Of a stretch of 25,223 nt of DNA, positions 909 to 5,199 are shown one piece after another. The stretch's first letter is position 1. Every line of letters begins with the position of its first letter. The stretch comes from Methylophilaceae bacterium (GTDB lineage: Bacteria > Pseudomonadota > Gammaproteobacteria > Burkholderiales > Methylophilaceae). The notes under the pieces were generated by a model, which searched no databases, was not told where the DNA came from, and saw nothing but the letters and a program-made list of their open reading frames with translations. Position numbers and translations under genes: made by a program. The DNA lies in the NCBI GenBank assembly GCA_035761085.1, contig DASTRT010000089.1, positions 1 through 25,223 of the forward strand, read 5' to 3'.

Positions 909-2498
909 TTGTCTATTGAAACAAGCACGACCCCTGGCTTTAACGAGCTCGGGCTGATTGAACCCTTGCTGCGCGCGATTAACGACGCCGGCTACACCAC
1001 GCCTACGCCGATTCAACAAAAGGCGATTCCACAAGTATTGAATGGCGGCGACCTCATGGCCGGCGCCCAAACCGGCACCGGCAAGACCGCTGGCTTCACG
1101 CTACCCATCCTGCAGCTCTTGAGCCAGAAGAAGGCCAATGGCTCGACCGTGGGTCGGCCGCGCTGCCTGATCCTCTCGCCGACACGTGAACTCGCAGCGC
1201 AGATCGAGGAATCAGTGCAGACCTATGGCAAATATCTGCCCCTCAAGTCCTACGTGATTTTCGGCGGCGTGAACATCAACCCGCAAACAGCGCGCTTCAA
1301 GAAGCCGCTGGATATCCTGGTGGCAACACCTGGCCGTCTGCTCGACCACGCAGGCCAGAATACGATTGATTTGTCAGGCGTTGAAATCCTGGTGCTGGAC
1401 GAAGCCGACCGCATGCTGGACATGGGCTTTATCCGCGATATCAAGAAAATTCTCGCGCTGCTGCCCAAGCAACGGCAGAACCTGCTGTTCTCGGCGACCT
1501 TCTCCGATGAGATAAAGGCGCTGGCAGATGGCCTGCTGCATAACCCGGGCTTTGTCGAGGTGGCACGCCGCAACACGGCATCCGAGCTCGTGGAGCAGAC
1601 CGTGCATCTGGTGAGCCAGAAGCAGAAGCGCGACTTCATGAGCCATCTCATTCAGCTGCATGACTGGCAGCAGGTACTGATTTTCACGCGCACCAAACAC
1701 GGCGCAAATCGCCTGGCCGAGAAGCTCGGTAAGGACGGCATCACCGCCGCCGCAATCCATGGCAACAAGAGCCAGGGCGCGCGCACCAAGGCGCTGGCGG
1801 ATTTCAAGAGCGGCTCCGTACGCGCATTGGTAGCTACCGACATCGCCGCACGCGGGCTGGATATCGACCAGTTACCGCAAGTGGTGAATTTTGAATTGCC
1901 TAACGTACCGGAAGACTACGTGCATCGCATCGGCCGTACTGGCCGTGCGGGTTCCACGGGCGCCGCGATTTCGCTGGTAGATCACGAAGAGCTCAAGCTG
2001 CTCAAGGATATCGAGCGCCTGATCAAGCGCGAACTGCCCAAGGTGACGGTGGATGGCTTCATCCCCAACGCCAATCCGGAACCGGAAGCACCGCGCCCTC
2101 CTCGCCAGCAACAACAGCGCAGGCCGCAAGGTGTCAAAGCGGAAGGTCAGCGTCAGGGACAGGGCCAACGCCAAAGGCAGGCGCAAGGGCAAGGCCAGCG
2201 CCAGAGCCAGGCAAATGGCCAAAAGCCCAATGGCCAGAAGAAGAGTGCCAACGGACAGGCACAACGTAATGGCCAGCCCGGCAATGGTGAGAATCGTAAC
2301 CAGTCGAGCAACAACCGCTCACGCAATAGCCAGGCACGCGGCCAAGGCAACCAGACTGGCAACAAGCCGGCCCAGAAGAGCAATTCAGGCAAGCCGATGT
2401 CCGAAGCTGCCCGTCATCAGGCACAGCCGCAGGAGTCTTTCCTCGCCCGAAGCCTGGGCACGCTAGGCAAGATGGCCAGAGGCAAATTCTCGTTCTGA
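909..2498 (+). CDS. rhlE: DEAD-box ATP-dependent RNA helicase RhlE with a long Q/G/N/R-rich C-terminal tail
   Basis: Q motif (TPTPIQ), [36 protein letters not shown] and [10 protein letters not shown] are all present. TTG start after GGAG. Confidence 0.93.
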
Positions 2499-2551
2499 GC
2501 AATACAAACCGTTCTTCGCACTCGCCGGAGAGCGGCTTTATCAGTCAGCTT

Positions 2552-2628
2552 AGTTATACTAAGAATACAATTGCCTTAGTATAACTTGCTTGGTTATACT
2601 AAATTTATAAATATTTTAGTATAACCAA
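2552..2628. repeat. Two tandem palindromes, GTTATACTAA-N13-TTAGTATAAC, with 40-bp period; probable operator
   Basis: Unit 1: AGTTATACTAAG (2552-2563) / CTTAGTATAACT (2575-2586), a perfect 12-bp inverted repeat. Unit 2: TTGGTTATACTAAA (2590-2603) / TTTAGTATAACCAA (2615-2628), a perfect 14-bp inverted repeat. Both have 11-nt spacers that differ in sequence. The confidence refers to the repeat; the operator role is inferred. Confidence 0.9.
2571..2600 (+). promoter_or_regulatory. Candidate sigma70 promoter embedded in the tandem palindromes
   Basis: TTGCCT (2571-2576), 18 bp, TATACT (2595-2600), in an AT-rich stretch 28 bp before the ATG at 2629. Confidence 0.5.
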
Positions 2629-3681
2629 ATGGAAATGGAACCCTTCTTTACTGAGCTGACTTCTACCGCGCAGACCTCCTACGCGCAGTTGGTGGATGCT
2701 GCGCTTGTTGCAGAGCACATGCGATCAGTAGCTGATTTGTCAGGCTCTTTTTCCCATAAAATCGTGAAAGGCCGCAAATACTGGTATTACCAATATAGCG
2801 AGCCTTCCGGCAAGCTGAAGCAGGTATTTGTGGGACCGGATAATGAAGCGGTACGAGGTCTGATGGCACTCAAGAATAAGCCTCCCGTGACCAGGAATCT
2901 GGCTCCCTTGGCTGCCTCTGCAGTGGCATTGGGTTGCGCTGATATCCTGCCGCGTCATTTGCGCGTGATCCTGCGGCTCTCTGAATACGGGTTTTTTCGT
3001 GCCGGCGGAGTGCTTATTGGCACACATGCTTTTCTCGCTTACGGCAATATGCTTGGCGTCCGCTGGGGCGAATCCTCGCGTACCCAAGATATTGATTTCG
3101 CCCATTCCGGCAAAAGTGTTGCACTAGCCCTGCCTTCAAATATAGAAGTCCAGACGCGGGATGCGATTGAATCACTGCAGATGGGTTTTTTGCCCGTTTC
3201 TGGCTTATCGAACAGGGGTGGCGCAAGCTATCTAATTCCACAGGATCCCGGTTTTCGGCTGGATTTCCTTACCACCCTGCATCGAGGCGGAGAGGAACCT
3301 TATGAACATCCCCTGCTGCACGTGACATTGCAGCCGCTCAAATTCATGGAGTATTCACTGGTGGATGTGCAGCAAGCGGTGCTATTCAATCGGGATGGTG
3401 CGGTAATGGTCAATATCCCCCATCCCGCGCGCTTCGCCCTGCACAAGCTGATCGTATTTGGTGAACGCACTGGATCCTTCGCCGCCAAAACGAACAAGGA
3501 CCTGTTGCAGGCTGCATCATTACTTGCCTTTTACAAGCAGAATCGCCCATGGGAGATGGAGGCAGCGCTAGAAGATTTGACCCGGCGGGGCAAAGGCTGG
3601 GTGAGCCGGCTGGAGCGCGGCCTCAACGCTTTGGCGCAAAATTACCCGGAACTTTCCATCAAAGAGTGGCTTCAGGCATGA
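2629..3681 (+). CDS. GSU2403-family nucleotidyltransferase-fold protein (NTP_transf_8-like)
   Basis: N-terminal [17 protein letters not shown]...KQVFVGPD module, Pol-beta-type signature VLIGTHAF...RTQDIDF, and C-terminal [11 protein letters not shown]...KDLLQA. The family was recognised from motifs, not from a search. Confidence 0.8.
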
Positions 3682-4139
3682 ATCAGAATATTCGCATTTG
3701 GGTCGACGCCGACGCCTGCCCCGTAGTCATTAAAGAAATCCTTTTTCGCGCGGCGGAGCGAACGAAAATCGAAACCATCCTGGTCGCCAACAAGATGCTG
3801 CGCGTGCCGCCCTCGCCTTACATCCGCGCCAGGCAGGTACCCGGCGGTTTCGACGTGGCGGATAACGAGATCGTGCTTAAAACCGAACCCGGCGATCTCG
3901 TGATTACTGCAGACATTCCACTTGCGGCGCAGATCGTCGAAAAAGGCGCACATGCCCTGAATCCTCGTGGCGAGATGTACACCCCGCACAACATCAAGGA
4001 ACGGCTGGCGATGCGCAATTTCATGGAGGGGCTTCGCAGCAGCGGCGTGGAGTCAGGCGGGCCGAATGCCATGAACAACAGCGACCGGCAGGCCTTTGCC
4101 GCGGCGCTGGATAAATTCCTGGCTGGCCAGATTCGCTAG
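3678..4139 (+). CDS. yaiI: YaiI/YqxD (UPF0178) family protein
   Basis: [28 protein letters not shown] and ALNPRGE motifs. The start at 3678 overlaps the upstream stop (ATGA); the ORF-track start at 3549 is too long. Confidence 0.9.
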
Positions 4140-4239: not shown

Positions 4240-4638
4240 ATGACGATAGTTCCGATGTACGCAGCCTTACTGGCCCTGCTCTTCCTGCTGTTGAGCAAGC
4301 GGGTCATCAACACACGGCGCAAGGTTCGGGTCGCAGTGGGCGACGGCGGCAACGCCGAGCTCACCCGCGCCATCGCCGTGCACAACAACTTCGCTCAATA
4401 CGTGCCGCTGGCCTTGCTGCTGCTGGCCTTCATGGAACTGCAGCGCGCGCAGCCGATGCTGCTGCATGTGCTGGGAATCATCCTGCTGCTGGCGCGGGTC
4501 ATCCACGCTTACGGCGTGAGCCAGATGCAGGAGCCATTCCGTCTGCGTACAGTGGCCGTGGGAATGACTTTCGGTGTCATTGCCACAGCGTCCGCCTACC
4601 TGCTGCTAGGAGCAATGCTGCGTTCGTATTACAGCTAA
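4240..4638 (+). CDS. MAPEG family membrane protein
   Basis: AGGAG RBS, hydrophobic helices, VGDGGN...RAIAVHNNFAQYVP and ARVIHAYG motifs. Confidence 0.88.
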   Translation: MTIVPMYAALLALLFLLLSKRVINTRRKVRVAVGDGGNAELTRAIAVHNNFAQYVPLALLLLAFMELQRAQPMLLHVLGIILLLARVIHAYGVSQMQEPFRLRTVAVGMTFGVIATASAYLLLGAMLRSYYS

Positions 4639-4713
4639 TTGCGCCATCGCACAAAGACCAGCTGCATCAAGGCGTAGCATTCTCCTACAGCCAGCGCATT
4701 CAAAGGAGGCATC

Positions 4714-5199
4714 ATGCATCTCGAAGGCTCATGCCATTGCGGCGCCGTCCATTTCAGCCTGGAAAGCCACACGCCCTACCCCTACCAGCGCTGCTACTGC
4801 TCGATCTGCCGCAAGACCCAGGGTGGCGGCGGTTACGCCATCAATATCGGCGGCGACGCGAACAGCATGCAGGTGCAAGGCCGCGAGCACATCACGATCT
4901 ACCACGCCAAGATCAGAAACCCAGGCCAGCCGGAGGAAATCAGCACCGCAGAGCGGCATTTCTGCAAGCACTGCGGCAGCGCGCTGTGGCTTTTCAGCCC
5001 GGAATGGCCTGAGCTAATCCATCCTTTCGCTTCGGCCATCGATACGCCGCTCCCGACGCCGCCGGAACACACGCACCTGATGCTGGAATTCAAGGCACCA
5101 TGGGTGGAAGTGCAGAAAGGTCCGCGCGACAAGCTGTTCGACATCTATCCCGAAGAATCGCTGGCCGACTGGCACGACCGGCTGCACCTCACTCGCTAA
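4714..5199 (+). CDS. GFA/CENP-V family zinc protein (glutathione-dependent formaldehyde-activating enzyme-like)
   Basis: GGAGG RBS; zinc ligand motifs GSCHCGAV, CYCSICRK and RHFCKHCGS. Confidence 0.88.
   Translation: MHLEGSCHCGAVHFSLESHTPYPYQRCYCSICRKTQGGGGYAINIGGDANSMQVQGREHITIYHAKIRNPGQPEEISTAERHFCKHCGSALWLFSPEWPELIHPFASAIDTPLPTPPEHTHLMLEFKAPWVEVQKGPRDKLFDIYPEESLADWHDRLHLTR

Follow-up and report, generated by a model that had tools for sequence, protein, structure and literature searches.

The AbiE systems of Streptococcus agalactiae and Lactococcus lactis have recently been reclassified as type VII toxin-antitoxin (TA) systems, and Rv2827c is known to repress its own promoter through inverted repeats within it. 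AbiEi, which combines a DNA-binding domain with a nucleotidyltransferase (NTase)-like domain, likewise binds inverted repeats in its own promoter (PMC7319586). The toxins are switched off by their antitoxins at a phosphoacceptor residue, which is T65 in AbiEii, T39 in MenT1 and S78 in MenT3 (bioRxiv 10.64898/2026.01.19.700257). Here, we describe a computational analysis of a gene that may share some of these features, a solo NTase gene at positions 2629-3681 (+) of a 25,223-nt stretch of DNA from a Methylophilaceae bacterium (GenBank assembly GCA_035761085.1, contig DASTRT010000089.1), referred to below as the window. Its layout recalls an AbiEi-type autoregulator, with a putative DNA-binding N-terminal domain joined to an NTase domain and inverted repeats upstream, although the N-terminal domain is not a winged helix.

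The original prediction, made from the letters of the sequence, had described the gene as a possible one-gene, self-regulated toxin or defence module of the GSU2403 type. Our analysis favors an acquired, autonomous one-gene module that may behave as a single-chain AbiE/MenAT-like addiction or abortive-infection module, a reading to which we assign a probability of roughly 0.45. The open reading frame (ORF) is intact from ATG to TGA and encodes 350 amino acids (aa), and the two motifs quoted in the original prediction are indeed present in its product, the stretch ending in KLKQVFVGP at aa 44-70 and GTHAF...RTQDIDF at aa 131-157. In a Pfam scan, PF12281 NTP_transf_8 (GSU2403) covers aa 111-316 (E 7e-48) at 163.8 bits, against a gathering cut-off of 26.3, which places the protein in this family. 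An NCBIfam scan of the protein gave no match; NCBI labels the homologues 'GSU2403 family nucleotidyltransferase fold protein'.

An acquired segment with its own double palindrome

The gene stands alone between the DEAD-box helicase gene rhlE (909-2498) and yaiI (DUF188), as had been described, with the correction that yaiI starts at the ATG at 3678 and overlaps the NTase stop codon. In 14 related genera of the family the site is empty, and yaiI starts 0-5 nt from the rhlE stop codon. Positions 2499-3677 therefore constitute a 1.18-kb insert that consists of one ORF and its upstream region. The ORF is also poorer in G+C than its neighbors, as had been noted from small samples: its GC content is 53.5%, and 56.7% at third codon positions (GC3), compared with 58-61% and 71-79%, respectively, for rhlE, yaiI and the downstream MAPEG and GFA genes. 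A GC content as low as that of the ORF is found in 2.7% of 1053-nt windows across the 25-kb window, and the 130-nt region upstream of the ORF has only 34.6% GC.

The distribution of the gene is patchy. Searches with the protein detected a homologue in 1 of the 24 further genera examined in its family and in none of 16 genomes representing the order's other families, and 41-49 of the 401 Pseudomonadota genomes sampled, roughly one in ten, carry a family member. The closest homologues, at 88% identity, also lie between rhlE and yaiI, and homologues of about 70% identity are flanked by quite different housekeeping genes. In a relative of the same family (G024), the rhlE-yaiI junction is intact and a 46%-identical copy is located elsewhere in the genome (L012, 1492-2541, minus strand). 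Taken together, the empty sites in 14 genera, the GC3 deficit and the patchy distribution show, at the level of genome comparison, that the gene was horizontally acquired, in agreement with the suggestion made in the original prediction. The features of the segment are as follows.

2499-3677, plus strand: inserted segment (palindromes and ORF) of low GC and GC3, between the rhlE stop codon (2496-2498) and the yaiI start (3678).
2552-2586, no strand: distal palindrome O1, arms 2552-2563 and 2575-2586 (AGTTATACTAAG / CTTAGTATAACT), gap 11 nt, 100% complementary.
2571-2600, plus strand: sigma-70-like promoter match, -35 TTGCCT (2571-2576), 18-nt spacer, -10 TATACT (2595-2600).
2590-2628, no strand: proximal palindrome O2, arms 2590-2603 and 2615-2628 (TTGGTTATACTAAA / TTTAGTATAACCAA), gap 11 nt, last base adjoining the ATG.
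2629-2988, plus strand: N-terminal domain (aa 1-120), a probable DNA-binding module, DUF6788-like, from AlphaFold2 models, conservation and ESM Atlas neighbors.
2989-3417, plus strand: Pol-beta-fold catalytic core (aa 121-263), from Pfam, AlphaFold2 model, conservation and fold search.
Landmarks within the core: G131-T132; T152-x-D154-x-D156 (3082-3096), in a loop of low model confidence; D212 (3262-3264).
3418-3681, plus strand: C-terminal helical domain (aa 264-350) and stop codon, from AlphaFold2 model and conservation.
3678-4139, plus strand: yaiI (DUF188), a host gene outside the module, its start overlapping the NTase stop as ATGA.

The most distinctive element of the segment is a pair of tandem perfect palindromes (2552-2628) of the form GGTTATACTAA-N11-TTAGTATAACC, offset from each other by 40 nt, which span the promoter-like site and run up to the ATG. 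The pattern GTTATACTAA-N(9-13)-TTAGTATAAC occurs at one place only in the 2.0-Mb genome, upstream of the NTase gene, and the same motif precedes homologues in unrelated loci across host orders and classes. Inverted repeats whose arms measure 10 nt or more were present between -90 and +10 in 71 of the 75 close homologues and 22 of the 26 distant homologues; of 100-nt windows drawn at random from these loci, 7% contained one. In most homologues listed, 0-4 nt separate the proximal arm from the ATG. The close clade contributed 98 non-redundant palindromes, which show almost no variation in the core G-T-T-A-T-A-C-T; their inner spacer is 77.5% A+T, and in 83 of them the two cores are separated by 19 nt.

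The half-sites vary with the protein lineage (GTTATACTAA, GTTATACTCC, GTTGCTAAACA, GTTGTACATG, TACCCCACAAA, GTTATGGTCAC, ATTATCCCTC and others). A clade centered on Thiobacillus carries GGTTATACTCC...GGAGTATAACC, and distant members, plasmid copies included, have palindromes at the same position and of similar geometry with other sequences (GTTGCTAAACA, GTTGTACATG, TACCCCACAAA, GTTATAAGA, GTTATGGTCAC, ATTATCCCTC, TTATCTATAA). The 46%-identical copy in G024 has its own 11-N11-11 palindrome, GTTGCTAAACA...TGTTTAGCAAC (L012, upstream region 2542-2620). Being unique in the genome and accompanying homologues into unrelated loci and plasmids, the palindromes are shown by these comparisons to belong to the gene and not to the host. 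Because they are gene-private, lineage-specific in sequence and fixed in geometry, they bear the signature of a DNA operator for the adjacently encoded protein, and the change of half-site with protein lineage at constant geometry suggests that the gene is autorepressed by way of the N-terminal DUF6788-like domain. The self-regulation that had been proposed thus finds support at the level of transcription, in private palindromes that co-vary with the protein lineage.

Could the palindromes instead serve a host factor? A host protein might bind them, or the NTase protein might be a conventional transcription factor whose regulon extends further and whose enzyme domain resembles a sensor. Both variants seem very improbable, as the motif is confined to the NTase gene within the genome, the same motif follows the gene across host orders and classes, two paralogues within one genome (G120) carry differing palindromes, and the catalytic residues are conserved.

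The sole sigma-70-like match in the region has its -35 element in O1 and its -10 element within the left arm of O2; it is a consensus match of a kind that chance alone would produce once in the region scanned. Its position bears on a further alternative, namely that the repeats act as RNA hairpins in a 5' leader, where they would control translation as an operator or form a type III-like RNA antitoxin. The two tandem 40-nt units, which end at the start codon, can each fold into an 11-14-bp hairpin, and inner arm positions co-vary between lineages, both of which would suit such a role. However, it is the arm sequence itself that is conserved and not just the pairing, the loops are variable and A+T-rich at fixed length, and mismatches in the close-clade palindromes show no G:U strand bias (71 of G:U type in the sense RNA versus 72 of A:C type). 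In addition, since the only promoter-like -10 lies inside the proximal palindrome, a transcript would hold at most half of that palindrome. We regard a role as RNA hairpins as scarcely plausible.

Two other assignments for the repeats were ruled out. Integron attC sites do not fit, as the repeats are upstream and their core is unlike GTTRRRY, and a leaderless mRNA from a -10 in the right arm does not fit either, as the arm-to-ATG distance of 0-4 nt is too short for a transcript start. A search for RNA evidence turned up a single sequencing run, of DNA, which contained 5% of the sampled words.

The borders of the insert show some further peculiarities. In the relatives, yaiI is translationally coupled to rhlE, and in the window this coupling has been taken over by the insert (ATGA), so that the NTase promoter, and the repression acting on it, may now govern yaiI expression. 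At its C-terminus, RhlE (window 2430-2498; L001 4700-4794) differs over the last ~20 residues between the insert-bearing lineage and the relatives (...AALFSPKPVYRGGNRGR), and the 3' end of rhlE may have been remodeled by the insertion. Between rhlE and the palindromes, the 88%-identical relative carries a terminator-like G+C hairpin with a T run and, in addition, ~100 nt of further sequence (L001 4795-4900), all of which is absent from the window; members of the lineage thus differ in the left border of the insert. Further downstream (4240-5199) lie an ordinary MAPEG-family gene and a gene of the glutathione-dependent formaldehyde-activating enzyme family (GFA).

The N-terminal domain and its probable operator

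The N-terminal ~110 aa lie outside the Pfam model, yet are conserved across the family to ~30% identity. Representatives align over residues ~6-345 down to the same identity, consistent with a family-typical full-length architecture of ~350 aa, and in Pseudomonadota nearly all family matches are in frames of 315-410 aa. The domain is modeled as one helix, a three-stranded antiparallel sheet (aa 40-70) and three helices, with K44, G48, Y51, Y53, Q55, Q65 and G69 carried by the sheet, and in isolation it reaches a predicted local distance difference test score (pLDDT) of 94.

Several weak signals, consistent among themselves, hint at a DNA-binding fold. Weak Pfam signals are to Arm-DNA-bind_3 and to the SSV1 integrase N-terminal domain, and weak structural signals in the AlphaFold database are to integrase, AP2-like and Arm domains. 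Neighbors in the ESM Atlas are DUF6788 domains (TM 0.4-0.53) that lie N-terminal to Fic, HipA_C and AAA_14 proteins. Precomputed PF20586 (PF20586.4) matches exist on some family members, one of them marked weak. The assignment to DUF6788 remains a lead, because the PF20586.3 model does not match the NTase protein and an hhalign comparison with three DUF6788 sequences was not significant. DUF6788 of the transposase type has a CxxC insert, which the N-terminal domain here does not have.

A 581-aa DDE transposase encoded in another Pseudomonadota genome (DUF772 + DDE_Tnp_1; L151, 58-1803, minus strand) begins with DUF6788. The domain is also present in two short ORFs of that genome (L150, 1387-1800, minus strand; L152, 197-592, plus strand), and the regions upstream of the L150 and L151 copies are nearly identical. 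Such a position at the head of a DDE transposase fits a DNA-binding role. The original prediction that the N-terminal module is plausibly nucleic-acid binding can be sharpened: it most likely binds nucleic acid, and its probable target is its own DNA operator.

A possible kinship with transposase and integrase domains would also suit a different function of the palindromes, as recombination or mobility sites with which the protein moves its own cassette, the N-terminal domain acting like the end-binding domain of a transposase or integrase. Precise insertion at many unrelated sites in the absence of another mobility gene speaks for this, as do the DUF6788-headed DDE transposase and the weak fold matches to Arm/AP2 integrase DNA-binding domains. 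However, the repeats flank the cassette on one side only, its 3' end runs straight into yaiI with no sequence to spare, and no target duplication was seen at the insertion. The position of the palindromes, over a promoter-like site and the start codon, is that of operators, and we know of no Pol-beta-fold enzyme that catalyzes strand transfer. We therefore consider a role in mobility highly improbable; like the RNA-hairpin and host-factor explanations, it is less likely than either the single-chain TA-like module or the detoxifying enzyme discussed below.

A Pol-beta-fold nucleotidyltransferase

The full-length AlphaFold2 model, built with 100 sequences, has a pLDDT of 90 and a predicted template modeling score of 0.89, and the T152-D156 loop is its sole segment with pLDDT below 50. 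In this model, the Pol-beta core spans aa 128-263 and the C-terminal helical bundle aa 266-349. The features expected of the Pol-beta superfamily are all present, namely an hG[GS] motif, an [DE]h[DE]h metal-binding pair and a third carboxylate on the core sheet, and the residues concerned are strongly conserved in the family (G131 98%, T152 95%, D154 93%, D156 94%, D/E212 96%, K273 95%, D291 96%). In the C-terminal domain, P264, P266, R268, H272, K273, R280, K287, K290, D291 and Q294 are near-invariant. As judged from conservation and model, this part of the protein is a Pol-beta-fold NTase in which all catalytic residues are conserved.

In an exhaustive structural search, the matches rank as MenT1 (10.3), the fungal NTase-like protein 5UVD (10.0), TglT/MenT3 (9.0), ANT(2'') (8.9), MenT4 (8.2), JHP933 (7.8), LnuA (7.8), the AbiEi antitoxin (7.4) and Rv2827c (5.2). 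Comparison of the model thus places the tRNA-nucleotidylating MenT toxins as the nearest solved folds. A Foldseek search of the full model against the PDB returned 5UVD only, and searching the PDB with a sequence profile built from the family alignment yielded no match at E <=10. The model also agrees with the AbiEii/MenT fold in having a C-terminal helical domain with a conserved Lys and Asp, a pattern that appears to parallel the invariant K and D of the AbiEii alignment. At the profile level, the protein has no match to PF08843 (AbiEii/DUF1814) at E <=0.01, and hhalign of the family alignment with 17 AbiEii sequences aligns the DxD loop, placing T152 on the Thr of the AbiEii T-x-D-x-D motif.

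The original prediction had named AbiEii/MenT toxins and CD-NTases as Pol-beta-fold kin. The kinship holds for MenT- and AbiEi-like folds; it does not extend to the AbiEii profile, and no CD-NTase is among the best 50 fold-search matches listed. A CD-NTase/CBASS identity was ruled out for want of fold or profile support, of a PADLOC match and of an effector neighbor.

Proposed mode of action and comparison with known systems

How might a single chain combine these activities? In the mechanism that we propose, a 1.18-kb segment of two palindromes and one ORF was inserted between rhlE and yaiI, a step evident from the empty sites, and the palindromes travel with the gene, their sequence following the protein lineage while position and geometry are kept, as is apparent across the homologues. 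Very probably, the protein would bind the palindromes through its N-terminal DUF6788-like domain and repress its own promoter and translation start, with probably one subunit per half-site, the half-sites being about two helical turns and the operators about four turns apart. The C-terminal Pol-beta-fold NTase, with its MenT-like fold and conserved catalytic residues, is evident from model and alignment. Its action is proposed more tentatively, with somewhat less than even confidence: the active enzyme would add nucleotides to RNA, most likely to tRNA 3' ends, arrest growth and be held in check in cis. Low, autorepressed expression and autophosphorylation of T152, which would be the counterpart of AbiEii T65, MenT1 T39 and MenT3 S78, are two plausible restraints.

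The distribution of the family is compatible with such a role. The family comprises ~1,600 clusters at 50% identity, and homologues occur on 439 plasmid records, mostly from Rhizobium, Sinorhizobium, Pseudosulfitobacter, Agrobacterium and Paracoccus; on the two plasmids inspected, the NTase gene is solo. Some genomes have two copies. Truncated, frameshifted or stop-containing copies are fairly common (L183, 3001-3363; P0360; G306, G342, G399, G447), as is typical of dispensable, selfish or TA-like genes. Plasmid homologues, several copies per genome and decayed copies can be seen as TA-like traits of the family, and a toxin or defence role of the module is suggested by analogy.

Nor does the gene appear to depend on a partner. 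The flanks of 45 homologue loci hold 89 ORFs in which 96 Pfam families were matched, none in more than 5 ORFs, the commonest being sugar epimerase/dehydratase families (5 ORFs). Neither a recurrent neighbor nor an adjacent antitoxin gene (AbiEi/COG5340 or MenA) was found in these loci or in the individual contexts examined. When the 89 flanking ORFs were searched with PADLOC, each listed defence family was matched by one ORF, and the listed models were nearly all helicases. A split form, with a small N-domain protein and a short NTase, was not found among the short matches examined, which were contig-end cuts, assembly-gap breaks or decayed fused genes, although it may occur elsewhere. Some members are longer (P0223, 455 aa; P0123 and P0124, ~495 aa) and have extra C-terminal parts, either DUF1488 or ~150 aa that have no Pfam match above cut-off; these apparent fusions and tails gave no functional clue.

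Several observations weigh against a single-chain TA-like module. The isolated N-terminal domain has no significant PDB match, and its comparison with DUF6788 by hhalign remained below significance. The alignment with AbiEii is confined to a 22-column match in the DxD loop (E 0.047, probability 1%). The ORF lacks a visible Shine-Dalgarno sequence, and the promoter is a consensus match only. A solo toxin gene coupled to the housekeeping gene yaiI would be risky if the toxin were strong. The enrichment in defence islands that the original prediction had raised did not materialize: the NTase protein matches 0 families of PADLOC-DB 2.0 at E <=1, defence genes are not immediate neighbors of the homologues, and no homologue is on any phage record. 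In the literature search, no paper naming PF12281, NTP_transf_8 or DUF6788, none characterizing the family and no experiment on any member was found, in keeping with the earlier remark that no characterized substrate was known for the family; GSU2403 is mentioned once, in a paper on IHF in Geobacter.

The chief alternative is that the protein is a substrate-sensing, detoxifying 'trigger enzyme', in which the NTase nucleotidylylates a small molecule, for example an antibiotic (cf. ANT(2''), LnuA), and autorepression lasts until bound substrate frees the protein from its operator. No antitoxin would be needed, because the enzyme would not be toxic. The best fold matches, however, are MenT toxins, the near-invariant Thr of T-x-D-x-D and the C-terminal K/D pair parallel AbiEii and MenT, and no resistance-gene context was seen. 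We therefore hold this alternative to be unlikely, and continue to favor the TA-like module.

In its most far-reaching form, the proposal would make PF12281 proteins single-chain type VII (AbiE/MenAT-like) TA systems. A private double operator and a DUF6788-type beta-sheet head would serve self-repression, autophosphorylation of T152 in cis would silence a MenT-like tRNA NTase, and release would follow DNA loss, phage infection or dephosphorylation; by extension, DUF6788 would be a general autoregulatory head of solo toxin-type enzymes (Fic, HipA-like kinases, AAA_14, NTases). As a whole, this broader version is speculative and rather doubtful.

The closest described systems differ from the NTase gene in instructive ways. 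AbiE consists of two genes, for the AbiEi antitoxin and the AbiEii toxin, whereas here there is one. The winged helix of AbiEi contrasts with the helix and three-stranded sheet of the DUF6788-like domain, and, in contrast to AbiE, it is the putative DNA-binding protein itself that keeps the catalytic residues. The relation to AbiEii is limited to the DxD loop in hhalign, with no Pfam AbiEii match. The MenAT toxins of Mycobacterium tuberculosis (MenT1, MenT3/TglT, MenT4) share ~8-13% identity with the NTase over aligned residues, belong to a different Pfam family and have separate antitoxin genes (MenA), which are lacking here. ANT(2'')-Ia, LnuA, JHP933 and 5UVD align only with the enzyme part (from ~residue 103) and none covers the N-terminal domain; ANT(2'')-Ia and LnuA are resistance enzymes, whereas the locus has no apparent resistance context.

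The joining of a toxin-type enzyme to its own regulatory or neutralizing domain in one gene is known from CapRel-SJ46 and HipH/YjjJ, and HipH has a fused DNA-binding domain and no HipB partner. EzeT is likewise described as a single-polypeptide toxin module with its own regulatory or neutralizing domain (PMC4826407). In having a toxin-type enzyme and its own regulatory domain in one gene, all three resemble the NTase gene, but they belong to unrelated enzyme classes, being a UNAG kinase (EzeT), a RelA/SpoT-like pyrophosphokinase (CapRel-SJ46) and a Ser/Thr kinase (HipH/YjjJ). To our knowledge, none of them has been reported with a private double palindrome of the kind found at the NTase gene.

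If the proposal is true, a toxin of the MenT/AbiEii type can do without an antitoxin encoded by a second gene, and the AbiEi architecture of a DNA binder joined to an NTase-like domain gains a catalytically intact relative, which would bear on the origin of the AbiEi pseudo-enzyme antitoxins. The operator-protein pairs, being numerous, diverse and fixed in geometry, offer ready material for working out the recognition code of an uncharacterized DNA-binding domain. Compared with the two-gene systems, the locus would thus represent an AbiE/MenAT-type NTase module fused into one self-regulating gene.
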